A stretch of 64,000 nt of DNA from an uncultured Selenomonadaceae bacterium (GCA_965363355.1 CBDTTM010000001.1:5495-69494), one strand, 5' to 3'; positions 7,434 to 43,648 are shown, counted from the stretch's first letter. Notes: a model not told the origin generated them from the letters alone. Numbers and translations: made by a program.

Positions 7434-8396
7434 TCAAACTAACACTTTTGCCAAACGAATGAATTCTGGATCCAATTTCTTTTTATTCGTTACCGCATCA
7501 TGTAAATCAATTGATACAACTTTACCAGCATCAAAACCGAAAACGACATTCGATAAGCCTGATATAAGTGCCAAAGCTGCTTTTTCACCTAATTGACTGG
7601 CCTTGACCCTATCAATTACCGTTGGCGATCCACCTCTTTGAATATGTCCAAGAACGGATACTCTAGTTTCAATATTTGTTTTTTCACCAATGACTTTTCC
7701 TATTTCAATACCACTGCCGACACCTTCAGCAACAACTACCATGCTGTATCGTTTGCCTCTCTCATACGCTGCTTTGATTTCCTCACAAACAACATCTAAA
7801 TCGTATTCCGCTTCTGGAACCAAAATAGATTCAGCTCCGCCAGAGATTCCTGCAATCATTGCCAACCAACCGCATTTGCGGCCCATAACTTCAATGACAG
7901 CAATACGGCGATGTGCTGAAGCCGTGTCTCTTAGTTTATTGATTGCATCAATAATCGTATTCGCTGCTGTGTCGGAACCAATTGTGTAATCTGTTCCCCA
8001 AACATCATTATCAATAGTTCCCGGTAAACCGACAATAGGGATGCCATGCTCTGCACTCAATTTTTGTGCACCACGCAGACTTCCATCGCCACCAATTACA
8101 ACCAAACCTTGAATTCCACGTTTTACAAGATTCTCATAACCTTTTTGACGTCCTTCCGGCGTTTCAAATTCCGGGCAACGTGCCGTTCCTAAAAATGTTC
8201 CGCCACGTTGAATGATATCACTAACTGAGCATGTATTCATCGGAAAAATATCTTCCTCTAACATTCCCTTATAGCCATTATTAATTCCCCAAACTTTTAC
8301 CCCTTCAAACAAAGCAGTACGGACTACCGCACGGGTAGCTGCGTTCATTCCCGGGCTGTCTCCACCACTTGTCATCACTGCAATACTTTTTAACAT
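7434..8396 (-). CDS. pfkA: ATP-dependent 6-phosphofructokinase
   Basis: MTSGGDSPGMNAA, GGDGS and GLPGTIDND motifs, 320 aa. Confidence 0.9.
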   Translation of the reverse strand: MLKSIAVMTSGGDSPGMNAATRAVVRTALFEGVKVWGINNGYKGMLEEDIFPMNTCSVSDIIQRGGTFLGTARCPEFETPEGRQKGYENLVKRGIQGLVVIGGDGSLRGAQKLSAEHGIPIVGLPGTIDNDVWGTDYTIGSDTAANTIIDAINKLRDTASAHRRIAVIEVMGRKCGWLAMIAGISGGAESILVPEAEYDLDVVCEEIKAAYERGKRYSMVVVAEGVGSGIEIGKVIGEKTNIETRVSVLGHIQRGGSPTVIDRVKASQLGEKAALALISGLSNVVFGFDAGKVVSIDLHDAVTNKKKLDPEFIRLAKVLV

Positions 8397-8506
8397 AATA
8401 CTGTATCGCCTCCCGTTTATAGTATTCTCCTTCTAAGAAAAAAATCCTGTGCTTTTTACCGTAATCCGCGCAAAAGGAAGAATTTATTTTATGTTCTGTC
8501 AAAATT

Positions 8507-9343
8507 CTATTTATAAACAAACTGGTCTTGCAAAAAATCTTCTTCTGCTAGACAAAGGAAAAAAGTATCCAACACAACTGGATCGAACTTTTTCCCTCGC
8601 TCCTTTATCATAAGCTGCAAAGCTGCTTCAGAAGTCATCGCTTGGCGATAAACCCGATTTGCAGTAAGCGCTTCATAGACATCCACAACCGATAGAATTT
8701 TTGCAGGTAATGGAATTTCATCGCCAATTAAATGACATGGATAACCACTTCCATCAACAGCTTCATGATGAAAGCAGACATATTGTGACACTTTCCGAAA
8801 AGCTGCAATATCTTTTATTGCATTGCAACCAATCTGTGGATGTCTTTTGATTACAGCAAACTCTGCTTCTGTGAGACTATCTTTTTTTTGCAATATATTT
8901 TCAGGAATCCCAATTTTCCCAATATCATGCAGGCTTGCCGCTATTGCCAAATCAGTCAAATCAGTTGCACTAAGCTGCAGGCGTCGGCCCAACATCATCG
9001 CCAAAGAACATACACGCTCAGAATGCCGCCCTGTTGAACGGTCTCTACAATCGATCAATTTAACCAAAGCCGCAACAGCCTCTAAAGATATTTGCTGGTT
9101 CATTTGCTGAACTTGCTTATCCGTTAGAAGGGATGCAAGCCATTGTCGCTCTTCTCTGGTCTTCATCACTTTTTCTTTTAATAAACGACCGAATAGTTTC
9201 TGGTTAAAAAAAATAATAAAAAGGATGCTAATCATCTCAATGCTTGCATATGAATCTGACGCTCCGGCAAAAAAGAAAGAACTTCCCATCAATACATATA
9301 AGAAACACAAAAATAGAAAGTTTTGTCTCAAAATATCAACCAA
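8507..9343 (-). CDS. membrane-anchored HD-GYP domain phosphodiesterase
   Basis: HDIGKIGIP and HHEAVDGSGYP motifs. Hydrophobic N-terminus. Confidence 0.8.
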   Translation of the reverse strand: MVDILRQNFLFLCFLYVLMGSSFFFAGASDSYASIEMISILFIIFFNQKLFGRLLKEKVMKTREERQWLASLLTDKQVQQMNQQISLEAVAALVKLIDCRDRSTGRHSERVCSLAMMLGRRLQLSATDLTDLAIAASLHDIGKIGIPENILQKKDSLTEAEFAVIKRHPQIGCNAIKDIAAFRKVSQYVCFHHEAVDGSGYPCHLIGDEIPLPAKILSVVDVYEALTANRVYRQAMTSEAALQLMIKERGKKFDPVVLDTFFLCLAEEDFLQDQFVYK

Positions 9344-28735: not shown

Positions 28736-29290
28736 TTAGAATTTTCGTCGTTCCATTAACCCCATCAATGCGAGTATCTGATTGAGGGCAACATCTGGGA
28801 CGCTGATGTTTTTTACAACATGCGTCGAGAGTTTCCAAGAATCAAATTCTCCATTATTTTCGGCATATTCAAGATGATACTTGATTTCGTCATTGCTTTC
28901 ATTGAGCTTAAGCATACGCTCGATCAATGTGACGTAATCTACCATGATATAAATCGATTCAATACGGGATGTAAGTATTTTTTGCAGCTGTTTTAAACCA
29001 TTTGCTTCTAAGAGTACCAGGCTGATCTGATGATTAGCCAATGCGTAGAGGACATCTTCTTTGGCTAGGCCGTAATATTCTCCACGATAGGTAACTTTTT
29101 CAATCAATGAAAGCTTAAAAAAATCTTCGCGGCTCACATGCTTATAAAAAGGCGTGCGGTCATTCGTTTCAATCGGTGCGCGTGTTGTATAACTAGGAAT
29201 GTAATGGATTCCTAGCGCCTGCAGCTTTTGGGCAAAAAAACGCTTGCCTGCAGCATGAGGTCCGATGAATGCATAGATTTTATTTGCCAT
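28736..29290 (-). CDS. guanylate-kinase-like P-loop protein (divergent)
   Basis: Start trimmed to M17 (ATG at 29290). GPHAAGK P-loop and SYTTR motif. The GMP-binding GExDGxDY region is not conserved. Confidence 0.55.
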   Translation of the reverse strand: MANKIYAFIGPHAAGKRFFAQKLQALGIHYIPSYTTRAPIETNDRTPFYKHVSREDFFKLSLIEKVTYRGEYYGLAKEDVLYALANHQISLVLLEANGLKQLQKILTSRIESIYIMVDYVTLIERMLKLNESNDEIKYHLEYAENNGEFDSWKLSTHVVKNISVPDVALNQILALMGLMERRKF

Positions 29291-29388
29291 AAAACCACTC
29301 CTGCTCCCGTGCATTTTTATTTCCCGAGCATTTACCAATATATTTATTTTAACATAAATCAGATTCTTTATAAATAGGTAATATGAAG

Positions 29389-29429
29389 AAAAAAACAGAA
29401 GCGAGAGCTTCCGATCGCCCTCGCTTCTG
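29389..29429 (-). terminator. intrinsic terminator (second of two in tandem downstream of tRNA-Pro)
   Basis: Minus strand reads cagaagcgagggcgatcggaagctctcgcttctg followed by T7. Confidence 0.55.
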
Positions 29430-29532
29430 CCGCCTCTACCTTACCTTTGCCACCTACTACAAAATGTAGTAGTTCCCCAAACAGTAGGATACACCTTTTA
29501 TATTATTTTGGCAATAGGTAAAATAAATTTTT

Positions 29533-29566
29533 GCAAAAAAAAAACATTCCCAAAAGGAATGTTTTA
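29533..29566 (-). terminator. intrinsic terminator of tRNA-Pro
   Basis: Minus strand reads aaaacattcc-ttttg-ggaatgtttt followed by a long T-run. Confidence 0.6.
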
Positions 29567-29581
29567 CTTTTTTAGAAAAAA

Positions 29582-29658
29582 TGGTCGGAGCAGCAGGATT
29601 CGAACCTGCGACCCCCTGGTCCCAAGCCAGGTACTCTACCAAACTGAGCCATGCCCCG
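29582..29658 (-). tRNA. tRNA-Pro (anticodon UGG), CCA encoded
   Basis: Minus strand reads CGGGGCA-TG-GCTCAGTTTGGTAGAGT-A-CCTGG-CTTGGGA-CCAGG-GGGTC-GCAGG-TTCGAAT-CCTGC-TGCTCCG-ACCA. All four stems pair. Confidence 0.9.
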
Positions 29659-29766
29659 ATAGCCAATAAAAAAATTATAATAAGAAATGGAGGATTTGTC
29701 AATACCTTTTATGGGTTTTATAAAAAAATATATGAAAGTATGTAAAATAAAAGCTTTGAAACTGTG

Positions 29767-30486
29767 TCAAAAATAACGATTGAGAACTTTATCGTCAGTT
29801 CCAGCACGGCTATAACGATATTGCGGTCGACCGACGGTGCCATAGACCAGTTGTAGATTCAGTAATTCTAAATCTTTTAGGAAATCGAGGTATTTTCTCA
29901 TGGAAACACGGGAAATCCCTACTTGGATAGCAATTTCTTCTGTGGAGAAAAAAATACTGTCGGCTTGCTTTATTTGCTGCCAGACGCTTTTTAAGGTATT
30001 TTTGTCAATTCCTTTGGGCAGATGCATTTCGTTTGTATGTTCTTTATATAAAAGATAATTGTCGAGATGAACTTGGTCGATCAGGTTTTCTTTTTTCATG
30101 ACTTGAAGCAATTCCTTATAATTGAGTAAGGCACTGCTGAGGCGTTCAAAGTCAAAGGGCTTAATAATGTAATCAATTGCACCGAAACGAAGCGCCTGCA
30201 TGATTGTAGCGTTATCACGAGCGGCTGTTACGAGGATGACATCTACGGATTTGCTCTTTGCACGGATTTGTGTCAATAAATCGAGTCCGTTGAGCTTTGG
30301 CAGGAATATATCCAATAAAACGAGATCGATGTCTATCTTGTCGATGATAGACAAGACTTCAAGGGCATCATGGACGACGGATACGACTTTGAAGCCATCA
30401 ACTAATTCGACATAGCGCTTATTCAATTCGGCGACCATAAAATCGTCTTCAACGACTAATACATTGATCAAAGTCTCACTTCCCAT
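29767..30486 (-). CDS. response regulator, CitB/DcuR family
   Basis: Receiver domain (VLVVEDD...DLVLLDIFLP) plus C-terminal HTH. 239 aa, overlapping the kinase gene. Confidence 0.85.
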   Translation of the reverse strand: MGSETLINVLVVEDDFMVAELNKRYVELVDGFKVVSVVHDALEVLSIIDKIDIDLVLLDIFLPKLNGLDLLTQIRAKSKSVDVILVTAARDNATIMQALRFGAIDYIIKPFDFERLSSALLNYKELLQVMKKENLIDQVHLDNYLLYKEHTNEMHLPKGIDKNTLKSVWQQIKQADSIFFSTEEIAIQVGISRVSMRKYLDFLKDLELLNLQLVYGTVGRPQYRYSRAGTDDKVLNRYF

Positions 30487-32119
30487 CGCTATATGGTATA
30501 TTTACATAGAATGTGGTTCCTTGGTTTATTTGGGATTCAAAAGCAATAGTGCCTTTATATCGATTTAGGATCTGTTTTGTCTGATAGAGTCCGATTCCAC
30601 GGTTCTTGCTTTTAGTAGAATACGCATTTTGGTAAATGTGTAAAATATTCTCTTGTGGAATGCCAATTCCTGTATCATTTACCATAATTTTAATTTGTTC
30701 ATCTGTTTGAGAAATTTCTAATTCGACCTTTTTGTTTTGACTATTTTCTACAGATTCGACAGCATTGTTCAAAAGGCTGCCAAGAATCGTTATGACATCG
30801 TGGATAATTGGTGCATCTAGCATGTTTGGTAAAAAGCAGTTTTCGGTAAGTTTCATTTCAACACCAGCTTCATGAGCCCAGCTGAGTTTGCCTAGAAGAA
30901 AACCAGCGAGTACGGGATCTTTTATATTTTTAATGATGGCGCCGGTTTCTGATTGGTATTTGTAAGCGATTTGACGAATATATTCTTGTAGTTGGTCATA
31001 GCATTGCAGTTGGATCATTCCGAGTACAACGTGCATTTTATTCATGAATTCATGGGTCTGGGCACGTAGTGCTTCGGCATAAGTGCTGACATCCATGAGT
31101 TTTTCGGCAAGTTTTTGCAACTCGCTCTTATCACGGAAAGTAGCTACGACGCCGACGATTTCATTGTTTACATAAATAGGGACTCTGTTCGTCAATATGG
31201 TGATGCCGTTTAAGTCTTGTTCTTGATCGAGCTCGGCTATGCCGCTTTCTAGTACTTGGACCATTCGGCTGTTCGGGACGAAATCATCGACTTTTTCACC
31301 GATACCGTCGCCCTTGATGCCAGCTTCGGCGAATAAACGTCTTGCCGCCGGATTTATGGTTTGGATTCTTGTATCTTTGTCGATGGCGAACGAACCTTCG
31401 CGGATAGCTGTCAATATGGCATTTCTTTCTTCAAGCAATCTAGCCACGGCGAAGGGTTCAAGACCGAACGTCGATTTTTTGATGTGTTTTGCCATAAAGC
31501 CGGCAAAAATAAGGCCAGTCAATAAGCCGCAAATACTGCCATATAAGATGGGGAGTTTGTTTTCTGTAGCATTGCCTTCGGCAGTATCGAGCATGATGCC
31601 GACTAAGACAACTCCGATTTGTTCTTGTTTTTTGTTATAGATCGGAATGAATTTTCGCATGGATTCTCCGAGCGAACCTTTTGATACAGAGGATATTTCC
31701 TTGCCATGAAAAGCATCATCGGCATCGGTGTTATCGTAATAGGTATCAATCATTGCTGCATCGGGATGAGAATAGCGTTTACCGTCCATGCCAAGCACGA
31801 CGACAAAACGGATTTCATCGATTTCAGAAATGTTGTCAGCGAATTGTTGTATTTTTTCAGGCGGTATTTTACCGGAAAGACCATCGATTACAATAGGGGA
31901 ATCTGCTACCATGTGAGCGATATCATCTGCCTTTATGTATAAGTGCTGATATGTGTTTTCATGGACTTTACTGCTGATTAAAAAATCGGTGATAAGAAGC
32001 GATACGCTGATGATGATAAAGGTGAGGAGAACAAAGTTGTGTTCTAGAGAAAAAAAATTTTTTGTTGTTTTGATAAAAAACACCTTCAATCTATGAATAT
32101 AAATAAATTTTAGGGACAA
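30476..32119 (-). CDS. sensor histidine kinase, CitA/DcuS family
   Basis: TM, extracytoplasmic sensor domain, TM, PAS, SpoOB-type phosphoacceptor (AQTHEFMNKMHVVLGMIQL), then HATPase (NAVES...DTGIGIP...GIGL). TTG start; the exact start is uncertain. Confidence 0.85.
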   Translation of the reverse strand: MSLKFIYIHRLKVFFIKTTKNFFSLEHNFVLLTFIIISVSLLITDFLISSKVHENTYQHLYIKADDIAHMVADSPIVIDGLSGKIPPEKIQQFADNISEIDEIRFVVVLGMDGKRYSHPDAAMIDTYYDNTDADDAFHGKEISSVSKGSLGESMRKFIPIYNKKQEQIGVVLVGIMLDTAEGNATENKLPILYGSICGLLTGLIFAGFMAKHIKKSTFGLEPFAVARLLEERNAILTAIREGSFAIDKDTRIQTINPAARRLFAEAGIKGDGIGEKVDDFVPNSRMVQVLESGIAELDQEQDLNGITILTNRVPIYVNNEIVGVVATFRDKSELQKLAEKLMDVSTYAEALRAQTHEFMNKMHVVLGMIQLQCYDQLQEYIRQIAYKYQSETGAIIKNIKDPVLAGFLLGKLSWAHEAGVEMKLTENCFLPNMLDAPIIHDVITILGSLLNNAVESVENSQNKKVELEISQTDEQIKIMVNDTGIGIPQENILHIYQNAYSTKSKNRGIGLYQTKQILNRYKGTIAFESQINQGTTFYVNIPYSDGK

Positions 32120-32204
32120 TCAAAAGTATAGAATATATGGGATATTTATTACAATATTCCATATATTCTATACTATATCCTGCTTATTCATAATAGATAA
32201 AAAC

Positions 32205-32238
32205 AGGGAAAGGTGCAGAATGTACTGCACCTTTCCCT
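32205..32238. terminator. hairpin terminator at the end of the decarboxylase/transporter operon
   Basis: Hairpin agggaaaggtgcag-aatgta-ctgcacctttccct with T-rich flanks. Confidence 0.55.
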
Positions 32239-32252
32239 ATTTTAAGCAAATT

Positions 32253-32795
32253 TTAATTATTTTGCAGATTTGCAAGAATGGTATTTTTGTCTGTTTGATT
32301 TATTTTACCAGGTAAATTTTTGGTCAGTTCTGCCAAAAAATTTGCATCGGGTTTAAAATAAATTCGTTCATTTTCTATCTTTTTTGTATTTTTGCTGACG
32401 GTGTAGGCAATGGTCCAAACCTTTCGGTTATCAAGTCCACTGTGGAAGCGGAAGGTTCGTCTGAAATGCATGATGCCGATTAATTTTGGTTCATAGGGAT
32501 AAATTCCTTGGATTTGAGAAAATTCTATTGTTGATGTCTTCATATTCCAAAGATTTTTTTGTGTGAATTTAAGCAGTTTTCCAGAGCATTCACATATATA
32601 TTTTCCTTGTATGCGTTTTATCAGTGAAAAAAGGAAGACGATATCTATGCCGATTCCAAGTGGCTGGAATTTGTGCAATTTGAAAATTTCCATCAGATTC
32701 AAAAGCAGTAGTCCGGCAAAAAAAAGTATAGCCAGAGTGAAAAAAATACGGTTTTTGGAATTTATTTCTGATTCTGTCGATAAAAATTTTGCCAT
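32253..32795 (-). CDS. hypothetical two-TM membrane protein, visibly AT-rich
   Basis: 180 aa with two hydrophobic helices (aa ~17-60), then a ~110-aa basic soluble domain. I recognise no motif. Confidence 0.4.
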   Translation of the reverse strand: MAKFLSTESEINSKNRIFFTLAILFFAGLLLLNLMEIFKLHKFQPLGIGIDIVFLFSLIKRIQGKYICECSGKLLKFTQKNLWNMKTSTIEFSQIQGIYPYEPKLIGIMHFRRTFRFHSGLDNRKVWTIAYTVSKNTKKIENERIYFKPDANFLAELTKNLPGKINQTDKNTILANLQNN

Positions 32796-32832
32796 AGGAT
32801 CGTCTCCTTATATTCACGAAGATAGAGATTTT

Positions 32833-34209
32833 TTATACGTTTAGCAGGCCAAAGAAAATATAGCAAAGGATAGCACCGACAACGCACATGGAGAAGCCCC
32901 AAATCAAAAGTTGACGGAATAATTTACTCTTATCTTCTTTATCCGAAGCACAAGCGATACACATTGCGCCAAACAGCGAGAGCGGTGAGGTATCAACTAG
33001 ATGTGAGCCGACATCGATCGAAGAGATCATGGCGATGGCGCTGCCGCCGCCAAGCTGTTCGACCAAACCTGGAACAAGTGGCAAGAACATCGGCATGACG
33101 ACACCAGAAGAGCTTGAAAACGATGAAATAAATCCGCTGGTAAGCGCTAAGACACCATTGATGCTTGTTGGGTTTGAAACTGTAGCAATCATGCCAACGA
33201 GTGCGTCTAGTCCACCGGCTTTGTCCATGACGTCGATGAGGACACCCATGCCGCCTACCATGATGATGACGGACCACGGAACAGCCTTGATGGCTTCTTT
33301 GCTGTCACCTACGTTCAAGATCAGAAGAAGTGAAGAAAGCATAAAGGCGATTGCCCCGACATTGGTAACCTTTCCATTACCTAAAAAGTCCATGATTGTC
33401 GGAGTAAAGAAGCTTTTTGTTAAAGAAAGGCTTGGTAAAATGACTAAGAGAACAAGGATACCGATAGCTCCGAGGGTCATCCATTGTTTTTTGTCAAAAG
33501 GTTCTGGCTTTGGTGCGATATCATCGATGTTGAGTGTGGAAGCACGTTGATTCCGTATCCAAGCCCAGCCGCCGAAAATCATGAAGCCGCCGATATTGGC
33601 AAATAGTTGGGCAATTTCAGAGTTGAGATGGATTTTCCAGGCCAAGAGGCTTAAATCGCCCATATGCTGACCGAGGCTTTCAAGTTCAGGAGTCATTTTG
33701 GCAATGAAAGAATTGGAGATGATGCCGCTTGGCGCGATTGGTGAAAATGCAGCTCCGTTAGCGGCACCGACGACAAGTAATGTCATCAAGAAGGCTTTCA
33801 TGCCGATGCGTTCCGATATGGACATGACGACTGGCGCCATTAAGGTAACGGTTGCGATATTGCCAGGGCCGATGGTTGTTATGATGGTGATCAAAGCGAA
33901 GATGATCAAAGGAATCAGGGCTGTGTTTCCTTTGGCCAGCCGTATGGCATTAGCCGTAAGCTTTTCCATGGTTCCGTTTGTTGTGGCGATTCCAAAGAGA
34001 AAGGTTACACCTGTAAGTACCATAAATAAATCAACTGGCCAGGCTTGCATGATTTTTACAGCAGAAAGGTTAGCGAAAAAGGCACCTATGCCGATCGCAA
34101 AAGAAATGGCAATAATCCCTACATTGAGATCTTCATTGATCATGGATATAGCAACTACAATGAGTATGCCAGCCAATGAAGCGATTGCGGCAGATGATAA
34201 TCCTAGCAT
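32833..34209 (-). CDS. polytopic anion permease of the ion-transporter superfamily (DASS/CitMHS/ArsB/DcuC-like); putative carboxylate carrier
   Basis: 458 aa, about 12 TM segments, internal two-fold repeat with a central hydrophilic loop. Family assigned by general appearance and context only. Confidence 0.5.
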   Translation of the reverse strand: MLGLSSAAIASLAGILIVVAISMINEDLNVGIIAISFAIGIGAFFANLSAVKIMQAWPVDLFMVLTGVTFLFGIATTNGTMEKLTANAIRLAKGNTALIPLIIFALITIITTIGPGNIATVTLMAPVVMSISERIGMKAFLMTLLVVGAANGAAFSPIAPSGIISNSFIAKMTPELESLGQHMGDLSLLAWKIHLNSEIAQLFANIGGFMIFGGWAWIRNQRASTLNIDDIAPKPEPFDKKQWMTLGAIGILVLLVILPSLSLTKSFFTPTIMDFLGNGKVTNVGAIAFMLSSLLLILNVGDSKEAIKAVPWSVIIMVGGMGVLIDVMDKAGGLDALVGMIATVSNPTSINGVLALTSGFISSFSSSSGVVMPMFLPLVPGLVEQLGGGSAIAMISSIDVGSHLVDTSPLSLFGAMCIACASDKEDKSKLFRQLLIWGFSMCVVGAILCYIFFGLLNV

Positions 34210-34257
34210 AAAAGATTCCCCCTCGAATTTATCGTATATCCCAAGGAAGCCAATACA

Positions 34258-34404
34258 TCAATCATCGTCTTCTTCGCCGGCTGCATCTGCTGGAAAAGCT
34301 TTGCGAAGAAGGACGGTTGCACCGATGAAAATTGCGATTACAAAAAACATGGTTGGCAGGGCAATACACATCATAGTGACTGCTTTTACAAATGCTCCAT
34401 CCAT
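34258..34404 (-). CDS. OadG-like small single-TM subunit of the Na+-decarboxylase (absent from the ORF track)
   Basis: Hand translation gives MDGAFVKAVTMMCIALPTMFFVIAIFIGATVLLRKAFPADAAGEEDDD (48 aa). RBS gtgaggtg. Lies between the beta-subunit and permease genes. Confidence 0.55.
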   Translation of the reverse strand: MDGAFVKAVTMMCIALPTMFFVIAIFIGATVLLRKAFPADAAGEEDDD

Positions 34405-34422
34405 TTTTGACACCTCACTTTT

Positions 34423-35580
34423 TTATTTTGCCAAGGCTGGAATAAGTGCTAAGACAAGACCACCGGCGACGACAGAAGCAATCTGACCGGCAACATTGAC
34501 TCCGATGGCATGCTGGATGATAAAGTTTGAAGGATCTTCTTTAAGTGCCATTTTGGCAATGACTCTTCCAGACATAGGAAATGCAGAAATTCCGCAAGCA
34601 CCGATCATCGGATTTATTTTTTCGGATCTGAGCAGGTTGAGTAATTTTGCAAACAATACGCCGCCAGCTGTATCAAAAACAAAAGCGACTGCGCCGAGAG
34701 CCATGATCATAGCTACCTGTACGGTGAGAAAATTTTCACCTGACATCGTACCACCTATCGTGATGCCGAGAAGTAATGTAACTAGGTTGGAAAGCTCATT
34801 TTCAGCAGCACTCGAAAGATTGTCGACAACGCCAGAAACTTTGAGGATGTTGCCAAACATCAAGCTGCCGATCAATGCCACGGAAATCGGAGCAACAATG
34901 CCAGCGATGAGGACAACCATCAAGGGAAAGAGGAAAATCGTGGTTTTAGATAGAGGTTCATCTTCTGAGTAGCCCATTTTTATTTTGCGTTCCGCTTGGG
35001 TCGTCAAGGCTTTGATGACAGGCGGCTGTATAATCGGAACTAAAGACATGTAAGAATAAGCGGCAACGGATAATGGCCCTAAAAGATCTTGAGCAAAACG
35101 GCTGGCAACGTAAATAGTCGTCGGGCCGTCGGCTGCGCCAATAATGCCGATGGATGCAGCGTTTTCAAAGGAAAAACCCATCAAAGCTGCTAATACGGCG
35201 GTGCCGAAGATACCTACCTGAGCAGCTGCGGCAAAGAGCATGACGATCGGGCGCCGTATCAGGGGCGTAAAATCGCACATGGCTCCAATGGCAATGAAGA
35301 TCAATACGGGAAATAATTCGTTGGCTATGCCGGCCTTATAAAGGACCCATAAAAATCCTTCTTCGCCGACTGCTTGTGAAATAGCAGATGAATAAGGGAT
35401 GTTTGCCAGTAATGCACCGAATCCGATCGGCAGCAGCAAGTTTGGTTCATAGTCACGTTTTACCGCCAGGTAAATCAGTAAAAAGCTGATGCCCCACATG
35501 ACGATGTTTTTCCATGTCAGGCCGATGAAGCCCATAAGTAATTCGTCTAACCAAGGGTATTGCAACATTAAAGATTCCAT
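34423..35580 (-). CDS. Na+-translocating decarboxylase beta subunit (OadB/MmdB/GcdB family)
   Basis: 385 aa, polytopic, with the length and sequence character of the OadB/MmdB family. Confidence 0.85.
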   Translation of the reverse strand: MESLMLQYPWLDELLMGFIGLTWKNIVMWGISFLLIYLAVKRDYEPNLLLPIGFGALLANIPYSSAISQAVGEEGFLWVLYKAGIANELFPVLIFIAIGAMCDFTPLIRRPIVMLFAAAAQVGIFGTAVLAALMGFSFENAASIGIIGAADGPTTIYVASRFAQDLLGPLSVAAYSYMSLVPIIQPPVIKALTTQAERKIKMGYSEDEPLSKTTIFLFPLMVVLIAGIVAPISVALIGSLMFGNILKVSGVVDNLSSAAENELSNLVTLLLGITIGGTMSGENFLTVQVAMIMALGAVAFVFDTAGGVLFAKLLNLLRSEKINPMIGACGISAFPMSGRVIAKMALKEDPSNFIIQHAIGVNVAGQIASVVAGGLVLALIPALAK

Positions 35581-35642
35581 TAAGCATGCCTCCTCATATG
35601 TTTATAAATAACTGCAGCAGCCGTAGTTTTGGCTGTTGCAGG

Positions 35643-36038
35643 TCAAACACTCAATAAAATAAGGATTTGTCCGGGTTTGACACTGTCACCAGCTTGAACA
35701 TTGACCGATTTTATGGTGCCATTTACAGGTGAGGCGATTTCATTCATCATTTTCATTGCCTCTAAAATCAAAAGCAAGTCGCCCGTATGGACGGTATCAC
35801 CAGCTTTTACATTGATTTTATTGACTTTTCCTGGCATAGGAGCTGATATTTTTGTATCTCCATCACTAATTGTTGGTGTTGGTTCGATAATGCTTTCTTT
35901 GGAAACTGAAACTGGCATGGCAACTGAAGGTGCTGGAATGGATTTTTTTGCTAGCGGAGAAGCGCTTTCGCCGGTCTTTTCGACTTCTACGGCATAAGCT
36001 GTTCCGTTTATGGTAACTGTCAGATTCATTTTATTCAT
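35643..36038 (-). CDS. biotin carboxyl carrier subunit (MmdC/GcdC-like)
   Basis: Biotinylation motif LILEAMKMMNEI. Ala/Pro-rich linker. Start trimmed to the ATG at 36038 behind ggaggt. Confidence 0.85.
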   Translation of the reverse strand: MNKMNLTVTINGTAYAVEVEKTGESASPLAKKSIPAPSVAMPVSVSKESIIEPTPTISDGDTKISAPMPGKVNKINVKAGDTVHTGDLLLILEAMKMMNEIASPVNGTIKSVNVQAGDSVKPGQILILLSV

Positions 36039-36064
36039 AGATGATACCTCCACTTCAAATTGGG

Positions 36065-36322
36065 CTAAATCTTGTAGGAATCCATTAGTTTTTGGCGCCC
36101 GCATAATTGCCATTCTTTACTGACTCGCGTTATTTTAAATGCGAGTCCAGGATTTTCAGCTGAAAACATCGCATAGGCTGCAGCGGTTATGATTGCTGCA
36201 GTCTCTGGAGAAACACCGAAGGTATCAGCTGTTCCAGTCTCTAACTTTTGTGTGGATTCAAGCGTTTCTTTTTTTGATTTTTTTTCTTTTTTATGGCCAA
36301 ATAACGATGCAAAAAATCCCAT
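36065..36322 (-). CDS. small decarboxylase-associated subunit (MmdD/MmdE/OadG-C-terminal-like)
   Basis: 85 aa from the ATG at 36322 (RBS aggagg). The motif AAIITAAAYAMF...ITRVSKEWQLCGRQKLM resembles C-terminal segments of OadG-family proteins. Confidence 0.45.
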   Translation of the reverse strand: MGFFASLFGHKKEKKSKKETLESTQKLETGTADTFGVSPETAAIITAAAYAMFSAENPGLAFKITRVSKEWQLCGRQKLMDSYKI

Positions 36323-36355
36323 GGTGATCACCTCCTTTACAAAACATAAAGTATT

Positions 36356-37798
36356 TTAAAATGGGATATTTCCGTGCTTTTTATGTGGACGAGATTCCCG
36401 TTTTGTCATCAGCATAGTTAAGGCCTGGATAATGTGGATACGCGTTTCAACAGGGTCTATAATTTGGTCAGTACAGGTAAAAATAGGCTTTTGCATATCT
36501 ATATGGGACAAAGATTTTTCTGGTATATGGTTTTTTTCTGCCTTTTGGCGGAAGAGGACAGCGGCTGAGCCAGCTGGTTCTTTTATTGCGATCTTAGCGC
36601 TCGGCCAAGCGAGTACGAGGTCTGCTCCAAGTTCTTTTGAACACAGTGCAAGATACGCAGCTCCATAAGCTTTGCGAATCAGCAGGCTGATTTTGGGCAC
36701 AGTGGCTTCTGCATAGGAATAGAGGATTTTGGTGCTGTGCCGGATAATGCCTTTATATTCTTGGCTTGTGTCTGGCAAAAATCCGGGAACATCAATGAAG
36801 GTTATTAAAGGCAAGTTGAATGCGTCGCAAAAACGGATAAAACGCGAAGCCTTGTCAGAAGAATTTATATCGAGGCAGCCGCCGATGGTCAAAGGCTGAT
36901 TGGCGATGATTCCTACGGATTGGCCATTGAAGCGAGCAAACCCGGTAATTAAGTTGCGGGCGTATAAAGACTGGACTTCATAGAATTGTTGGTCGTCGGC
37001 GGTAAGCTCAACCAAGTGCTTCATATCATAAGGGGAATCAATATTATCCGGCAGCACAGAATCAAGTTCTGGAATCAAGCGCATCGCAGAATCTTTTGTT
37101 GGTTTAATTGGTACATCTTCGAGATTATTGCTTGGTAAAAAACTTAAGAGCCGACGGATTTGGCAGATGCTGTCTGAGGGTGTAAGTGAGGAAAAATGAG
37201 CTGAGCCGGAACTTGTGTTGTGAGTGATCGCTCCACCTAGTTGTTCGGACGTTATCGTCTCACCAGTAATCGCTTTGATTGAAGCGGGTGAAGTCAAGAA
37301 CATGCTGCTTGCATCTTGCACCATATAGATGAAATCTGTAAGAGCGGGGGCGTAAACAGCACTGCCAGTACAAGAATTCAAGATAACCGATATTTGTGGA
37401 ACGACACCTGAGGCAAGTATGTGTTGATAAAGAAGTTTGCCATAGCCATTCATATTGTTGGCTGTTTTGTCGCTGGGAATATCGTTTAGCTTATTGATGC
37501 CGATGATTGGACAACGGGCCTTAAGGGCCATAGTAAATAGTTTACAGAGATTTTCGGTGTAGGATTCATCAAATACACTGTCTTCTACTGTGCAGTCTTG
37601 CGCATAGGCAAAAACAAGGCGATTTTCTATATTGCCATAGCCGGCAGCAAGACCAATAGGTGTTGCCGTGAAGTTTACGAAAGTTCCTTGATCAAAAAGC
37701 AGCTCCAAATACGTACTTGGGCAGCCTTCTTTTTTAGAAAGTGTTTCTTCAATACGTCGTACGGTCGTTTGCAAGAGCGGCACCTCCTGTGCGTGCAC
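36356..37798 (-). CDS. carboxyltransferase of the acyl-CoA carboxylase beta / MmdA / 12S family, with a degenerate N-domain
   Basis: Canonical C-terminal half (GIIANQP, CLDINSSDKASRFIRFCDAFNLPLITFIDVPGFLP, KKHGNIPF). N-domain glycine motifs are replaced (see findings). Confidence 0.8.
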   Translation of the reverse strand: MHAQEVPLLQTTVRRIEETLSKKEGCPSTYLELLFDQGTFVNFTATPIGLAAGYGNIENRLVFAYAQDCTVEDSVFDESYTENLCKLFTMALKARCPIIGINKLNDIPSDKTANNMNGYGKLLYQHILASGVVPQISVILNSCTGSAVYAPALTDFIYMVQDASSMFLTSPASIKAITGETITSEQLGGAITHNTSSGSAHFSSLTPSDSICQIRRLLSFLPSNNLEDVPIKPTKDSAMRLIPELDSVLPDNIDSPYDMKHLVELTADDQQFYEVQSLYARNLITGFARFNGQSVGIIANQPLTIGGCLDINSSDKASRFIRFCDAFNLPLITFIDVPGFLPDTSQEYKGIIRHSTKILYSYAEATVPKISLLIRKAYGAAYLALCSKELGADLVLAWPSAKIAIKEPAGSAAVLFRQKAEKNHIPEKSLSHIDMQKPIFTCTDQIIDPVETRIHIIQALTMLMTKRESRPHKKHGNIPF

Positions 37799-38033
37799 TT
37801 TCTGAACTTTTCTTATATCTAATTTACTGCTTAATTCATAAAAAGTCAGTATTTTATAAGTTTTTAAACTATTTTGTAATTAAAGTTACTGAGAAAAATA
37901 AAAAGAAGAAAATCCCTTTGTTTCTTTGGTAAAAATAGCAGGAAAAATAACAGGTACTAGAGAATGGATTGGCTGATAGGGGTATCTGCCCTTATTTAGA
38001 AAATCATATATTTTTTAATATGGGGGCGATGCT

Positions 38034-39026
38034 ATGCATTTTTATTGTGAAAAATGTAAAAAAGAATATCCGATGGATACCCTGGCTTACAAATGCATTT
38101 GTGGAGGCTTATTTCGTTTATTTAAACGCTTTGATGAAGTAGTGCCGACTAAAGTTTCGTTGGGAGAAGTAAGGACTCCGTTATTGCCGATACATGTTGA
38201 TAAAATCGATTTTTTATTGAAAATGGAGCATTTGCAGCCAACTGGATCTTTTAAAGATCGAGGCGCATTTATGTTGATAAATGAACTCAAAAATTTGGGC
38301 GTCAAAGAAATCGTCGAAGATTCTGCGGGCAATGCAGCAGCGGCGATTGCAGCCTATGCAGCGGCGGCTGGTATAGATTGTCTGATTTATCTACCGGAAA
38401 AGACCTCACCGGCGAAAATCCGGCAAATCGAGTCGACTGGTGCAACGATCAAAAAAGTAAGAGGTGATCGTGATAAGACGGCTCAGCTGGTGCAGAAAGC
38501 GGCAAAGGAAAGATATTACGCATCACATGTCTACAATCCACTTTTTTTTGAGGGAATGAAATCAATGGCACAGGAAATATATGAGCAGCTTGGTCAACAG
38601 GTTCCGGAATATATTTTTATGCCGGTGGGAAATGGAACTATGCTGCTTGGGCTTTATTATGGTTTTGAGGAAATCGGTCGTCTGCCGAAGTTCGTCGCTG
38701 TCCAAAGCTGCACTTGCCAACCGCTTTGTCATGCATTGCATAAAAAGGCAGGCAAAGATTCGGGGGAGACTATAGCAGAATCTATACGCGTAGGAAATCC
38801 GGCAAGGCTTGATGAAATGCTGCAGGCAATAAAAAATAGTAGAGGGGACGCTGTTACAGTCACCGATGAGGAAATCATGGCAGCAGCAAAAATACTTGGA
38901 AAAAATGGAATATATACAGAAATTAGTTCAGCGGCAGCCTTGGCTGGAGCCAAAAAATTCTTCAAGGATGGCAAGCCGGATAATTATAAGGTTGTCATAC
39001 CGCTTACCGGTCATGGCTTGAAATAA
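38034..39026 (+). CDS. PLP-dependent enzyme of the threonine synthase family with N-terminal zinc ribbon
   Basis: CEKCKKEY...CICGG zinc ribbon. PLP-lysine motif PTGSFKDRGA. 330 aa. Confidence 0.7.
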   Translation: MHFYCEKCKKEYPMDTLAYKCICGGLFRLFKRFDEVVPTKVSLGEVRTPLLPIHVDKIDFLLKMEHLQPTGSFKDRGAFMLINELKNLGVKEIVEDSAGNAAAAIAAYAAAAGIDCLIYLPEKTSPAKIRQIESTGATIKKVRGDRDKTAQLVQKAAKERYYASHVYNPLFFEGMKSMAQEIYEQLGQQVPEYIFMPVGNGTMLLGLYYGFEEIGRLPKFVAVQSCTCQPLCHALHKKAGKDSGETIAESIRVGNPARLDEMLQAIKNSRGDAVTVTDEEIMAAAKILGKNGIYTEISSAAALAGAKKFFKDGKPDNYKVVIPLTGHGLK

Positions 39027-39097
39027 AAAAATCGTGGGATTTTCTGCCATAATGAACTATAATTAAATCTTGTTCAGTATGACAGGAGGTTTTTTTT

Positions 39098-39856
39098 TTG
39101 GATGATGTGAGTATGATTGTTTTTTTGATGGTAATGGGATTTTTGGCATCCTTTGTTGATTCCGTTGTTGGCGGTGGTGGATTGATTTCATTGCCGGCTA
39201 TTCTTTTCACAGGAATGCCTCCGGTCCTCGCTTTGGGCACGAATAAGATTGCTGCAGTCATGGGGGCATTGACGAGCTTTGCGGCTTTTGTCCGTTCCGG
39301 CAAGGTCGATATGTCTTTGATCAAGATATTGTTTCCGCTATCTTTTATCGGTTCTTTGGCGGGCGTCATGATCGTGCGTCAGGTTCCACCTGATTTCTTG
39401 CGCCCACTTGTTGTCGTACTATTGATATCGGTGACGATCTATAGCCTTAAGCGCAAAGATTGGGGCACGACGTCCACTTATGGTGGATTGACTAAAAAAA
39501 TGCTTTATATGAGTGGTGTGGCAGCATTTTCTTTGGGCATCTATGATGGATTTTTTGGGCCGGGAACTGGTTCATTTTTGCTCTTTGCATTTCTTTTCAT
39601 TGGTTTTGATTTTATTGGTGCAGCCGCGAATGCGCGCGCTCTCAATTTTGCCAGTAACGTATCGGCTGCTTTGCTTTTTTCTTATTTTGGACTAGTAAAT
39701 TATCACTATGCATTGCCGATGGGTCTAGCGATGATCTGTGGTGCTTATTGTGGCACTAAAATGGCTATATCCAAGGGTGCCGCTTATATCAAACCTTTAT
39801 TTATAACAATGACGACCATTCTTATTGGTAAACAAATCTGGGACTTATTGAAGTGA
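39098..39856 (+). CDS. TauE/SafE-family (DUF81) anion exporter
   Basis: 252 aa, about 8 TM segments, GGGGLISLP and LGTNK motifs. Confidence 0.8.
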   Translation: MDDVSMIVFLMVMGFLASFVDSVVGGGGLISLPAILFTGMPPVLALGTNKIAAVMGALTSFAAFVRSGKVDMSLIKILFPLSFIGSLAGVMIVRQVPPDFLRPLVVVLLISVTIYSLKRKDWGTTSTYGGLTKKMLYMSGVAAFSLGIYDGFFGPGTGSFLLFAFLFIGFDFIGAAANARALNFASNVSAALLFSYFGLVNYHYALPMGLAMICGAYCGTKMAISKGAAYIKPLFITMTTILIGKQIWDLLK

Positions 39857-40019
39857 TTTAATTGTATAATTTTTGAAGAGATAAACCTGTAGGATCAATC
39901 GCTGCTGTTGGTTGATTTTATAGGTTTTTTTATATTTTTGTTAAAGTCATTGAAGAAAAGGATATTTTCAATTACAATAAGAAACAATAAATCATAAATG
40001 ATGATGACAGGGGGCGCTC

Positions 40020-40937
40020 GTGATGATCCAGGCGATTATAGATATAGGCTCTAATACGATTCGATTGGCGATTTACAAAATTGAATATGGGAAAATAGAG
40101 CTGATTATGAAACGCAAGAATATGGTCGGGCTCGCCGCTTATATAAAAGCAGATATCATGCAGCCTAAGGGCATTGCTAAAGCCTGCGAAATCCTCAATG
40201 AATACAAAGAATTTCTCAATGCCTTCAAAATCAAAGAGATTACGGCGTTTACTACGGCAGCTCTTCGCAATGTAAAAAATAGTCAAGAAGCTGTGCAGCA
40301 GATAACAGAGGAGACGGGAATCGCTATACGAGTGATTTCTGGCGATGAGGAAGCAGTCTATGATTTTATTGGCGCGACACATGATTTAAAAGATGACAGC
40401 GGGCTGCTGATTGATATCGGTGGCGCAAGTACGGAAATCGTGGTTTATGAAGACCATGAAATATGCAGCAAAATCAGTCTGCCGATAGGTTCTTTGGCAC
40501 TTCATACGAAGTATGTAGAGGGTTTTTTGCCGAGTTGCTTGGAAATAGAGGATATGCGTAAGGATATTGAGTCACTGTTGTCCTCGGCGCCCGAATTCAA
40601 GGAAATCCAGCATGCGCATATTTGCGGTATAGGTGGTACGTTCAAAGGAGCATCCGCTTTATACAATGAAATATTTAAAATGGGGCATGATAATAAATCT
40701 TTGCAAACAGAAAAGCTGGAGGAGATCATTGCTCGATTCAATCGCGATGCCAGTATGATTGAAAATGATGTATTGATTTTGATGCGAACGGTGCCGGATC
40801 GCATTCAAACGATTATTCCGGGACTTGTAATTGCCGATGTTTTGGCTAAGCATTTTGGCAGCGAACAAATTGATTATGCCGATGCTGGTGTACGCGAAGG
40901 TTATTTGTATGATCAGATCGTCAATGATGCAGAATGA
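40020..40937 (+). CDS. Ppx/GppA-family phosphatase (N-terminal actin-like domains only)
   Basis: IDIGSNTIRL, DIGGASTE and GIGGT motifs. Confidence 0.8.
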   Translation: MMIQAIIDIGSNTIRLAIYKIEYGKIELIMKRKNMVGLAAYIKADIMQPKGIAKACEILNEYKEFLNAFKIKEITAFTTAALRNVKNSQEAVQQITEETGIAIRVISGDEEAVYDFIGATHDLKDDSGLLIDIGGASTEIVVYEDHEICSKISLPIGSLALHTKYVEGFLPSCLEIEDMRKDIESLLSSAPEFKEIQHAHICGIGGTFKGASALYNEIFKMGHDNKSLQTEKLEEIIARFNRDASMIENDVLILMRTVPDRIQTIIPGLVIADVLAKHFGSEQIDYADAGVREGYLYDQIVNDAE

Positions 40938-40942
40938 AAAGG

Positions 40943-40976
40943 AGCTCAGGTTAGAATACCTGAGCTGTTTTTTTTA
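40943..40976 (+). terminator. intrinsic terminator
   Basis: Hairpin agctcagg-ttagaata-cctgagct followed by gT8. Confidence 0.7.
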
Positions 40977-41215
40977 TAAAAATACAATGGGGACAATCTT
41001 TTGTTGATTTTAGAAATTTTAGGATGGTTTGCTTAATTTATCGTGAAGCGGATTTTTTATAAAGCTTTTGCGGTTCGGTTGAAAAAGATGAAATGTCTTA
41101 TATAATGTGGGATTATGGACATTTTTATCGAAAAATGATATAATTAAGAGCTAATATGAACAAGGTATGTATAATTTTTTATATATTTTTAGGAAAATGA
41201 TTTTGAGGTGAGAAT

Positions 41216-43648
41216 GTGGATTTTGGTATAGGAAGAGTTTTACCGGTCAACATCGAAGATGAGATGAAAAATTCTTATATCGATTATGCGATGAGCGTTA
41301 TCGTTATGCGTGCGTTGCCGGATGTCCGCGACGGCTTGAAGCCTGTACATAGGCGTATTTTGTATGCGATGCAGGAAGCCGGAATGGCTTCGAATAAACC
41401 GTATAAAAAATCAGCCCGTATCGTCGGGGAAGTTTTGGGTAAGTATCATCCGCATGGTGATAGTTCTGTCTATGAAGCCATTGTGCGTATGGCTCAGAAC
41501 TTTTCTTCTCGTTACATGCTAGCTGATGGCCATGGGAATTTCGGTTCTGTCGATGGCGATTCGGCAGCAGCTATGCGTTATACGGAAGTTCGTATGTCAA
41601 AAGTTGCCGAAGCGATGCTTCAGGACATTGAAAAAGAAACTGTCGATTTTGTGCCGAACTATGATGAATCACTCAAAGAACCATCTGTTTTGCCAGCTAA
41701 ATTGCCAAATCTCTTAGTAAATGGATCTTCAGGTATTGCTGTCGGGATGGCTACGAATATTCCGCCGCATAATATGGTGGAAGTCGTCGATGGCGTATTG
41801 ATGATGATCGATAATCCTGAAATCACCATAGATGAACTGATGCTTTCAATCAAGGGACCGGATTTTCCAACGGGCGGGTTGATTCTCGGCCGCGAAGGGA
41901 TTTATTCGGCATATACGACTGGCCGTGGCATCGTCAAGATGCGGGCACAGGCTCGTATCGAAATGATGTCGAATGGAAAGCCTCGTATTGTTGTTACAGA
42001 GCTTCCTTATCAGGTGAATAAAGCTCGTTTGGTTGAAAAAATCGCTGAACTCGTTCGCGATAAAGCTGTCGAAGGCATAACGGATTTGCGCGATGAATCT
42101 GACCGTAACGGGATGCGCGTAGTCATTGAATTGCGTCGCGACTCGAACCCGGATGTCATTTTGAATCAGCTCTACAAGCATACGCAGCTGCAAGAAAGCT
42201 TCGGTATCATCATGCTGGCACTTGTCGAAGGCAAACCACAGGTCCTCAACTTGAAAGAAGTCTTGTATTACTACATCAAGCATCAAGAGGAAGTCATTCG
42301 GCGCCGGACGCAGTATGAACTAAGTAAAGCCAAGGCTAGAGCTCATATCTTAGAAGGTTTGACGATTGCTCTTGACCATCTTGATAATGTAATCAAAATG
42401 ATTCGAGAATCTCGTACGGCAGATGTTGCCCGTACGGCTTTGATGACGACGCTGAACCTTTCAGAAAAACAAGCACAAGCGATTTTAGATCTTCGTTTAC
42501 AACGTTTGACAGGTCTTGAACGTGAAAAAATTGAAGAAGAGTATCATGAAATACTCAAGACCATTGAATGGCTCGAATCTGTTTTGGCAGATGAAGCAAA
42601 GGTCCTCAATATCATCAAGGAAGAATTGACTGAAGTAAAACGTAAATTCGGCGACGAACGCAGAACGCGGATTACGGAAGATTTTTCGAAAATGAATATG
42701 GAAGATCTCATTGCTGAAGAAGATGTCGTCATTACATTGACACACAACAACTATATCAAGCGCATGCCGCTTGATACGTATAGAAATCAAAAACGCGGTG
42801 GCCGCGGCGTAACTGGCATGGGAACGAAGGAAGAAGACTTCGTTGAAAATATGTTGATTACGACAACGCATCATACGATTATGTTCTTTACGAACCAGGG
42901 TCGTGTATATCGCCTTAAAGGTTATGAAATCAATGAATCGAGCCGGACTGCCAAAGGAACAGCCATCATCAATCTCTTGTCGATGGAAGCCGGTGAAAAG
43001 ATCACAGCGGTCATTCCAATCCGTGAATTCATGGAAGGAAAATTCTTGTTCATGGCTACGCGTAAAGGGATTGTCAAAAAGACCGAACTCATGGATTTCG
43101 ATACCGCACGCAAAGGCGGTTTGATTGCCTTGACGCTTGATGATGACGATGAACTCATCGGTGTTAAGCTTACCGATGGCACTCGTCATGTAATCCTTGG
43201 GACTCGCGATGGTATGGCGATTGCTTTTGCTGAAGATGATGTCCGTTCTATGGGACGTACAGCACATGGTGTGCGTGGAATTCGCCTCAGTGATGAGGAC
43301 GAAGTCATCGGTATGGATAATCTCAAGAAAAATGCAGATGTGCTCTCCGTGACAGAAGCTGGTTACGGAAAGAGAACTCCTACGGGAGAATATCGCTCGC
43401 AGACTCGTGGTGGCAAAGGCCTGATCAATCTTAAAGTCACGGATAAGACCGGTGTTGTCATCGGCCTTAAAGTGGTAAGACCGGATCAAGAACTCATGTT
43501 GATCACGACAGAAGGTATTGTTATTCGGACGAATGTAGATCAAATTTCGGTAATCAGTCGCAATACGCAGGGCGTAATGCTGATGAAAACCGATACGAAT
43601 GACAAAGTGGCTTCTATGGCTACGATGGATCAGAAAAGCGATAGCTGA
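41216..43648 (+). CDS. gyrA: DNA gyrase subunit A
   Basis: [12 protein letters not shown], active-site region AAMRYTE, GyrA-box QTRGGKG. GTG start, 810 aa. Confidence 0.95.

Follow-up and report, generated by a model that had tools for sequence, protein, structure and literature searches.

A sodium-pump decarboxylase operon with a MatC-type permease and a diverged alpha subunit, beside a DcuS-type sensor pair, in an uncultured Selenomonadaceae bacterium

The methylmalonyl-coenzyme A (CoA) decarboxylase of Veillonella parvula is encoded in the order mmdADECB, and there is a related Na+ system in Propionigenium modestum. We analyzed a 64,000-nucleotide (nt) stretch of DNA (the window) from an uncultured Selenomonadaceae bacterium (GCA_965363355.1, CBDTTM010000001.1:5495-69494) that contains a decarboxylase operon of this general type. 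Nine open reading frames (ORFs) lie on the minus strand between 29767 and 37798. Seven form the operon, in the order A', an 85-amino-acid (aa) protein, the biotin carrier C', beta, a 48-aa peptide with a single transmembrane (TM) helix, a MatC-type permease and a 180-aa membrane protein, and the other two encode a sensor pair (Table 1). Our preferred reading, to which we give a probability of about 60%, is that the locus is an accessory module that senses and imports a C4-dicarboxylate, most likely succinate, conserves energy, and plugs into the resident succinate-to-propionate pathway. The analysis establishes the gene content and limits of the operon, its synteny with pathway genes in relatives, the existence of that pathway in the same genome and selection on every gene; the inducer, the transported substrate, regulation by the adjoining pair and the activity of A' are what we infer from the genes and their context.

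Like the Mmd enzymes of Veillonella and Propionigenium, the operon encodes an acyl-CoA-type carboxyltransferase, a carrier with an AMKM motif, an OadB-type beta subunit with the key residues, and small, putatively OadG-related subunits, and the overall chemistry is expected to be the same. Unlike in those systems, the order is A-tail-C-B-anchor, with the candidate anchor and tail as separate genes, and the operon includes the permease and the 180-aa membrane protein. A dedicated DcuS/DcuR pair adjoins it, whereas mutase and epimerase genes do not. The alpha subunit scores well under the cut-off of the mmdA model, and the motifs that contact CoA are missing from it. Thus an earlier observation made from the sequence by itself (hereafter the sequence-only reading), that the gene order differs from mmdADECB and that a permease and an extra membrane protein are present, was correct.

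The closest precedent is in Phascolarctobacterium faecium, in which two tandem mmd sets are followed by a transporter annotated as SLC13/DASS; the transporter gene had much larger transcripts-per-million values in co-culture with Bacteroides thetaiotaomicron, and the authors read it as a succinate importer (PMC7568257). Because of this precedent, a decarboxylase joined to a dicarboxylate carrier is not new as an idea. Strain JCM 30894 resembles the window's genome in having two Mmd sets and a transporter gene directly after beta. In contrast to the window, both P. faecium sets are in tandem inside the pathway cluster, and no diverged alpha, two-component system or 180-aa protein was reported (PMC7568257). 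The transporters, compared by annotation, are SLC13/DASS in P. faecium and MatC-type in the window. We found no earlier account of a conserved linkage with a DcuS-type pair, of the putative split anchor, of the 180-aa protein or of the hyper-diverged alpha.

Conversion of succinate to propionate by Negativicutes shapes short-chain fatty acid output in the gut and rumen. In one study, whether a strain consumed external succinate could not be predicted from its having mmdA or the full pathway (bioRxiv 10.1101/2023.11.21.568118). A module of sensor, permease and dedicated Na+ pump is a concrete genetic candidate for the missing determinant.

Other decarboxylases were considered and rejected. The beta subunit scores 149.3 bits against the model for malonate decarboxylase (Malonomonas Mad; TIGR03136, cut-off 596.9), and none of the nine operon and sensor-pair ORFs had a match of the acyl carrier protein type or the MadA type in Pfam or NCBIfam. 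For oxaloacetate decarboxylase (OadABG), which has an OadA-type carboxyltransferase that acts on a free acid, the alpha subunit is of the wrong type, being acyl-CoA type (PF01039), and the oadA models match the biotin carrier domain only. For glutaconyl-CoA decarboxylase, GcdA (1PIX) was absent from the Protein Data Bank matches at E <= 1e-20, among which PccB, 12S and MmdA-like chains were present.

Pathway genes and related modules

We found that the CoA-pathway genes absent from the window do lie elsewhere in the genome (contigs C92, C203, C257 and C88). The assembly (339 contigs, 2.8 Mb) holds two OAD_beta genes, two full carboxyltransferases and three mutase-domain genes. Contigs C92, C203 and C257 could be joined through split genes into one order: a second beta (beta2), then, further on, succinate CoA-transferase, mutase, B12 subunit, MeaB, epimerase, canonical MmdA, a 48-aa tail protein and MmdC. 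A second mutase set is on C88. The canonical MmdA groups with Selenomonadaceae members in a tree. These pathway genes and a standard decarboxylase thus exist on other contigs, and the window operon is a second set of decarboxylase genes. Beta2 (C92, L001 132-1882) is 43% identical to the window beta and is a solitary gene that follows a 142-aa ORF; the CoA-transferase/mutase/MmdA operon, which has neither a beta nor a TM anchor of its own, lies about 7 kb further downstream.

The sequence-only reading had described a self-contained module with no CoA-transferase, mutase or epimerase nearby, and had left its substrate unnamed. The absence was confirmed: tblastn searches with the pathway proteins of genome G026 (described below) gave one weak B12-domain match on the window's contig. 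A self-contained module with an unnamed substrate is not supported: a carboxyltransferase belonging to the acyl-CoA type (PF01039) depends on a CoA thioester, the genome encodes the CoA pathway elsewhere, and the homologous A-tail-C-B-anchor-permease block in G026 directly follows succinate-pathway genes. Of the two findings that the sequence-only reading had said would together count against it, CoA-pathway genes elsewhere and standard methylmalonyl-CoA decarboxylase activity, the first was thus made.

G026 is probably Sporolituus thermophilus, from another family. At its locus L117, the pathway genes run straight on into the module. First come succinate CoA-transferase (TIGR03458, 775 bits, which is above cut-off), mutase, B12 subunit, MeaB and epimerase, then MmdA, an MGFF-tail protein of 107 aa and MmdC; beta, a single-TM ORF of 50 aa, two copies of the permease, a family-III CoA-transferase and a 183-aa protein homologous to the 180-aa protein follow. 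From A through the permease the order is the same as in the window. In contrast to the window, CoA-transferase, mutase, MeaB and epimerase genes precede the module, A is canonical (85% identical to the canonical MmdA of the window's genome and 48-50% to A'), and there is the extra CoA-transferase. Identity to the window is 82% for beta, 60-65% for the permease copies and 36-41% for the 183-aa protein. No second beta was found in the G026 genome, so the window-type beta is a genuine MmdB there. No sensor pair was seen beside the module within the 20 kb read. The family-III CoA-transferase (L117 13960-15144) has its best matches among succinate-glutarate, oxalate and mesaconate CoA-transferases, all below cut-off, and hints at a second dicarboxylate substrate in G026.

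We compared the locus to those of other relatives. L100 has the identical nine-gene order, with an A' that is 90% identical to that of the window; L099 has an A' that is 81% identical and the PALP-TauE-Ppx-gyrA context upstream in common. L120, a metagenome contig, has at the same genomic site (gyrA, Ppx, TauE, PALP) the order canonical A, tail, C, beta, 45-aa ORF, permease, 180-aa ORF, kinase. In Propionispira raffinosivorans, which has two canonical copies of A, the order is kinase-regulator-A-88aa-C-beta-46aa-permease-186aa-mutase. CoA-transferase, mutase and epimerase genes are thus linked to the module in G026 and the mutase in Propionispira, and none are linked in the window. In Pectinatus haikarae the order is kinase-regulator-85aa-C-beta-44aa-permease-180aa; the module has no A, TMKE replaces AMKM in the carrier, and the genome that probably represents Pectinatus has a single full carboxyltransferase, on another contig. 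G033 has only beta-47aa-permease and G018 only beta-47aa.

Judged by gene order, the arrangement is not due to chance: the nine-gene order recurs in L100, and rearranged forms are found in four more lineages. The module is real by this measure but rare, with a permease of the window type in 4/262 Selenomonadaceae genomes (the four belong to three genera), and its conserved core is beta and the anchor (together with the permease and the 180-aa protein). Pectinatus, having lost A, and G018 and G033, being without an adjoining A, show that a window-type beta can function without a cognate alpha encoded alongside. The lineages make up a natural experiment on subunit redundancy, with alpha canonical in some, hyper-diverged in one and lost in another, and with beta, anchor and permease almost unchanged.

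Minor observations were made at some of these loci. One Pectinatus haikarae genome has an insertion sequence (rve/DDE) element between the degenerate carrier gene and beta (L123 7490-8518) that is not in L124. In L120 the carrier gene (8138-8541) was called as two pieces (43 + 92 aa), indicating a frameshift or a sequencing error. Several complete Selenomonadaceae genomes, including G012, have an MmdA-like carboxyltransferase without any match to OAD_beta, and would require a transcarboxylase or some different partner.

In the mechanism that we favor, the DcuS-type kinase would sense external C4-dicarboxylate, and its DcuR-type partner would activate the promoter that contains a conserved 36-bp block. 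The seven-gene transcript would yield a MatC-type permease that imports the dicarboxylate, the small two-TM accessory protein, and a complete second set of subunits of the Na+-translocating methylmalonyl-CoA decarboxylase made up of A', the anchorless tail, the biotin carrier, beta and the 48-aa anchor. Succinate would be converted to (S)-methylmalonyl-CoA by the CoA-transferase, B12 mutase and epimerase encoded on the other contigs. The carboxyl group would be transferred to biotin, and beta would decarboxylate carboxybiotin and export Na+. Canonical MmdA may be needed for some or all of the carboxyl loading of the carrier, because A' has lost both loops used for binding of the CoA adenine and polarization of the thioester.

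The sensor pair, the promoter block and the permease

The kinase passed the NCBIfam DcuS/MalK model (cut-off 520), and its sensor domain aligned best with that of Escherichia coli DcuS (E 1.6e-19, vs 1.6e-6 for CitA). It retains RYSH and R-x-F at positions matching DcuS R107, H110 and R147, the residues for the C4-dicarboxylate ligand in DcuS. For the regulator, DcuR was the best of all models (216.7 bits, below the cut-off of 262). The domain order is like that of E. coli DcuS-DcuR: sCache/PASp, PAS, SpoOB-type DHp and HATPase in the kinase, and a DpiA/DcuR-type helix-turn-helix (HTH) in the regulator. Unlike in E. coli, the target would be a decarboxylase/permease operon, not dcuB/frd/dctA.

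The sequence-only reading had placed a carboxylate-sensing pair immediately downstream of the operon. A DcuS-type pair is indeed there, and the association is kept in other lineages: the pair lies downstream of the module in three cases (window, L100, L120) and upstream of it in two (Propionispira, Pectinatus), and linkage is seen in four lineages and two different orders. The pair is probably a separate unit on the same strand, because an intrinsic terminator follows the 180-aa gene and promoter-like hexamers precede the kinase gene (32154-32096, promoter scan). That terminator, directly 3' of the 180-aa gene, is the only strong minus-strand terminator found. The seven genes were said to be on one strand, with short gaps and one terminator at the end, and this is what we found: all ORFs are on the minus strand, the gaps are, in order, 33, 26, 62, 18, 48 and 37 nt (18-62 nt), and the terminator is at 32243-32200.

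Upstream of A' is a 36-bp block with near-identical copies in L100, L099, L120 and Propionispira and a partial but recognizable one in Pectinatus, each set in intergenic DNA that is otherwise unalignable. It occurs once in the window's genome; elsewhere in that genome there were chance-level matches only. This fits, and does not prove, a dedicated regulator with a single target. An Rfam scan of 29000-38500 for a riboswitch or other leader RNA gave tRNA-Pro only.

The permease is well above the MatC_N cut-off (23 bits) and also matches CitMHS. It adjoins a window-type beta in G026 (two copies), G033, L120, Propionispira and Pectinatus, and is 92% identical to the window's in L120 and 88% in Propionispira.

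The 180-aa protein accompanies the permease in five lineages. None of six orthologues had a Pfam or NCBIfam match, and the family comprises 66 clusters among 1.84 billion representatives. An AlphaFold2 model of modest confidence (mean predicted local distance difference test score 68.9) gave weak Foldseek matches, to EROS (best, E 2.5e-3, TM-score 0.37) and to PH-like domains, which we take as a lead only. Its gene is richer in AT than any other in the operon (GC content 0.33 vs 0.40-0.46) and evolves faster than that of the permease, its constant companion.

The diverged alpha subunit

We found that A' is far from all MmdAs in the collections searched. It matches Carboxyl_trans (PF01039; Table 1) and is 50-56% identical to every MmdA found among 185,579 species genomes, 41 relatives and a collection of 5.8 billion proteins; the same searches gave four close clusters only, at 81-99% identity. 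Identity to the canonical MmdA encoded in the same genome is 53%. Between the window and L120, gyrA is 96% identical, beta 95%, the permease 92% and A 52%. In relative-rate tests with G026 as outgroup, unique changes in the window vs L120 were 138 vs 22 for A (p about 5e-20), 10 vs 5 for beta and 12 vs 10 for the permease (neither significant). By this comparison, A' has diverged about six-fold faster than its positional orthologue in L120. We used positional orthology with L120 in place of tree position. An ancient paralogue was considered for A' and rejected: its branch in the tree is 1.36 + 0.49 substitutions/site, long-branch attraction was flagged, and the placement is uninterpretable.

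The changes are concentrated in parts of the protein. At columns at least 97% invariant across 110 canonical MmdAs, A' deviates at 21/23 in the N-terminal segment, 43/112 in the N domain and 30/132 in the C domain. NSCTGS is in place of GPCAGG; PGFLP and RKAYG.AY are retained. Mapped onto solved homologues, oxyanion hole 1 is G-S (PccB G182-G183), hole 2 is A-A (PccB G419-A420), and there is a Leu at the specificity position D422.

Several findings weigh against the module as a methylmalonyl-CoA decarboxylase fed by imported succinate. The permease is of a family named after malonate transport, MatC. Permease homologues that are 73-79% identical are found in a Propionivibrio-like contig and in Sporomusa aerivorans without adjoining mmd genes; because these stand apart from mmd genes, context does not fix the substrate, and we dropped permease context as proof of it. 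The link between regulator and promoter is likewise deduced from synteny and the conserved DNA block alone. A' scores 550.7 bits against the mmdA model TIGR01117, for which the cut-off is 998.8. It has DSVFD in place of GGSLG, and KLNDIPSDK, in a stretch that varies within the A' clade, in place of DSGGARIQE. In a cryo-electron microscopy structure of AccD5 with propionyl-CoA, S116, A146, A148 and I150 hold the CoA adenine through their backbone, and A148 and G187 polarize the thioester carbonyl (bioRxiv 10.64898/2026.02.06.704326). With the offset set by the oxyanion hole, S116, A146, A148 and I150 map to GGSLG and DSGGARIQ, the two motifs missing from A'. In addition, A' has Pro and Lys at the positions of R165 and E168 of human PCCB, in which R165W and E168K cause propionic acidaemia (PMC8944130, PMC7137301).

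Even so, A' is not a pseudogene by the measures used and is under purifying selection. The ratio of nonsynonymous to synonymous substitution rates (dN/dS) in comparison with L100 is 0.081 overall (0.086 in the N half, 0.077 in the C half), and 0.11 and 0.09 in comparison with L099. It is possible that A' keeps residual methylmalonyl-CoA activity. A non-catalytic docking role for A' is slightly less likely, and a new substrate somewhat less likely again. We suggest only tentatively, and at less than even odds, that A' has been repurposed, either as a non-catalytic "pseudo-alpha" that docks carrier and canonical MmdA onto the second beta, or as an enzyme with a new carboxyl donor. A pseudo-alpha, if true, would be the first non-catalytic one of its kind; with a new donor, the operon would decarboxylate something besides methylmalonyl-CoA, under dicarboxylate control.

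In the fuller form of the docking scheme, A' would no longer be a catalyst and would be a structural or docking subunit, possibly in mixed hexamers with canonical MmdA, which would load the carrier in trans; the working unit would be beta, anchor and permease (perhaps with the 180-aa protein). The Pectinatus module without A, with its TMKE carrier and single full carboxyltransferase on another contig, is consistent with this, as are the reduced sets in G018 and G033, the many changes at otherwise invariant columns, and the variability of the former DSGGARIQ loop within the A' clade (dN/dS 0.28 vs L099). We nevertheless consider the scheme unlikely as a whole. The 472-codon frame is intact in five clade sequences (81-99% identity), dN/dS is 0.08 in both domains, and C' retains AMKM. 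In addition, the oxyanion holes are only mildly changed, and active enzymes tolerate Ala there (MCC A-G, AccD4 G-A). Redundancy by itself need not lead to decay, as Propionispira retains two canonical copies of A.

A' could instead have come to use a different carboxyl donor, such as malonyl-CoA or some other dicarboxylyl thioester. In that case the dicarboxylate that the operon imports and decarboxylates would not be succinate, which comes closest to the idea in the sequence-only reading. The changes cluster on the acyl-CoA side (the N-terminus and N domain) and the biotin-side motifs are kept, the replacement states DSVFD and NSCTGS are common to the A' clade, the permease family name refers to a malonate carrier, and G026 has a family-III dicarboxylate CoA-transferase between permease and 183-aa protein. 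However, the A' clade is shallow (>=81% identity), which makes shared replacement states weak evidence, and the high identity of the permease in L120 and Propionispira, where A is canonical, argues that specificity did not shift with A'. The sensor retains the C4-dicarboxylate residues of DcuS, and a CoA-transferase or ligase is absent from the operon. We regard a new donor in this form as improbable.

It has also to be asked whether A', tail and C' are a decaying duplicate nearing loss, co-transcribed merely as they lie upstream of the essential beta and permease. The loss of A and degeneration of C in Pectinatus, the apparently frameshifted C gene of L120 and the extreme long branch of A' would agree with decay. 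We find this very improbable, as the A' clade is free of stops and frameshifts, and neutral drift cannot account for a dN/dS of 0.08-0.11 at dS values of 0.58-1.3. We return to the accessory module for a C4-dicarboxylate as the preferred reading.

Pump, carrier, small subunits and feature coordinates

Beta scores 393.6 bits against TIGR01109 (cut-off 190.6) in addition to its OAD_beta match and, in alignment to 6IVA, retains OadB D203, Y229, N373, G377, S382 and R389, which are Na+-binding and catalytic residues. The carrier C' shares the N-terminus MNKMNLT.TING.AYAVEVEKTG with L120 and Propionispira.

The simplest reading of the small proteins is that an OadG/MmdD-type subunit may have been split, with the anchor encoded after beta and the tail after alpha. 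The 85-aa protein has a weak OAD_gamma match (positions 31-72 of 76, 17.5 bits, below cut-off), and group-wide such proteins match positions of about 26-73, all below cut-off. Orthologues follow A in L100, L099, L120, Propionispira and G026, and an orthologue is also present in Pectinatus. Family members have in common MGFFxSLFG and a C-terminal domain, joined by a basic linker that varies; the 48-aa protein of the canonical operon has this domain as well. Directly 3' of the window-type beta, a conserved ORF of 44-50 aa is found in G018, G026, G033, L120, Propionispira and Pectinatus. The Pectinatus 44-aa orthologue matches OAD_gamma positions 2-34 (15.8 bits, below cut-off), and the split fits because the 85-aa and 44-aa matches cover complementary halves of OAD_gamma. 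The 48-aa ORF had been called OadG-like. It does encode a single TM helix, is conserved after beta and is a candidate anchor; the 48-aa peptide itself matched no Pfam or NCBIfam family.

All genes of the operon are under purifying selection; dN/dS is 0.007 for beta, 0.009 for the permease, 0.105 for the 48-aa peptide and 0.17 for the 180-aa gene. Some starts were corrected (Table 1). A' begins at TTG 37774, not GTG 37798, on the basis of database orthologues and an AGGAGG 8 nt upstream; C' begins at 36038; and the kinase begins at GTG 32083, by comparison with L100.

Table 1. Features of the operon and sensor pair, in window coordinates
Feature	Position	Strand	Evidence or remarks
Conserved promoter block ACTTTAATTACAAAATAGTTTAAAAACTTATAAAAT	37851..37886	-	-35-like ATTACA, -10-like TAAAAT (promoter scan); candidate regulator site
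A', hyper-diverged carboxyltransferase (alpha), 472 aa	36356..37774	-	PF01039, 433.8 bits
85-aa soluble protein, MGFFxSLFG...	36065..36322	-	resembles anchorless tail of MmdD/E or OadG
C', biotin carboxyl carrier, 131 aa	35643..36038	-	Biotin_lipoyl, 75.7 bits; EAMKM intact
B, Na+-translocating carboxybiotin decarboxylase (beta), 385 aa	34423..35580	-	OAD_beta, 477.4 bits
48-aa single-TM peptide, acidic tail	34258..34404	-	candidate membrane anchor (OadG/MmdD N-terminal helix)
MatC/CitMHS-type permease of the ion-transporter superfamily, putatively for dicarboxylates, 458 aa	32833..34209	-	MatC_N 102.2 bits, CitMHS 67.4 bits
180-aa membrane protein, two N-terminal TM helices and beta-rich C-terminal domain	32253..32795	-	no family match
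Intrinsic terminator at operon end	32200..32243	-	19-bp stem, 8 GC pairs, T-run
DcuS/MalK-family sensor histidine kinase, 535 aa, probably a separate transcription unit	30476..32083	-	NF008298, 599.8 bits
DcuR/CitB-type response regulator, 239 aa	29767..30486	-	Response_reg and DpiA-like HTH

The site of the module seems to be conserved across genera, although the module is rare in the family. In the window clade and L120 it adjoins gyrA, in the order gyrA, Ppx-GppA, TauE, ThrC-like PALP enzyme, operon (window 38034-43648). The Pectinatus haikarae module is also near gyrA, in the order gyrA, CbiMQO, two-component system, module.

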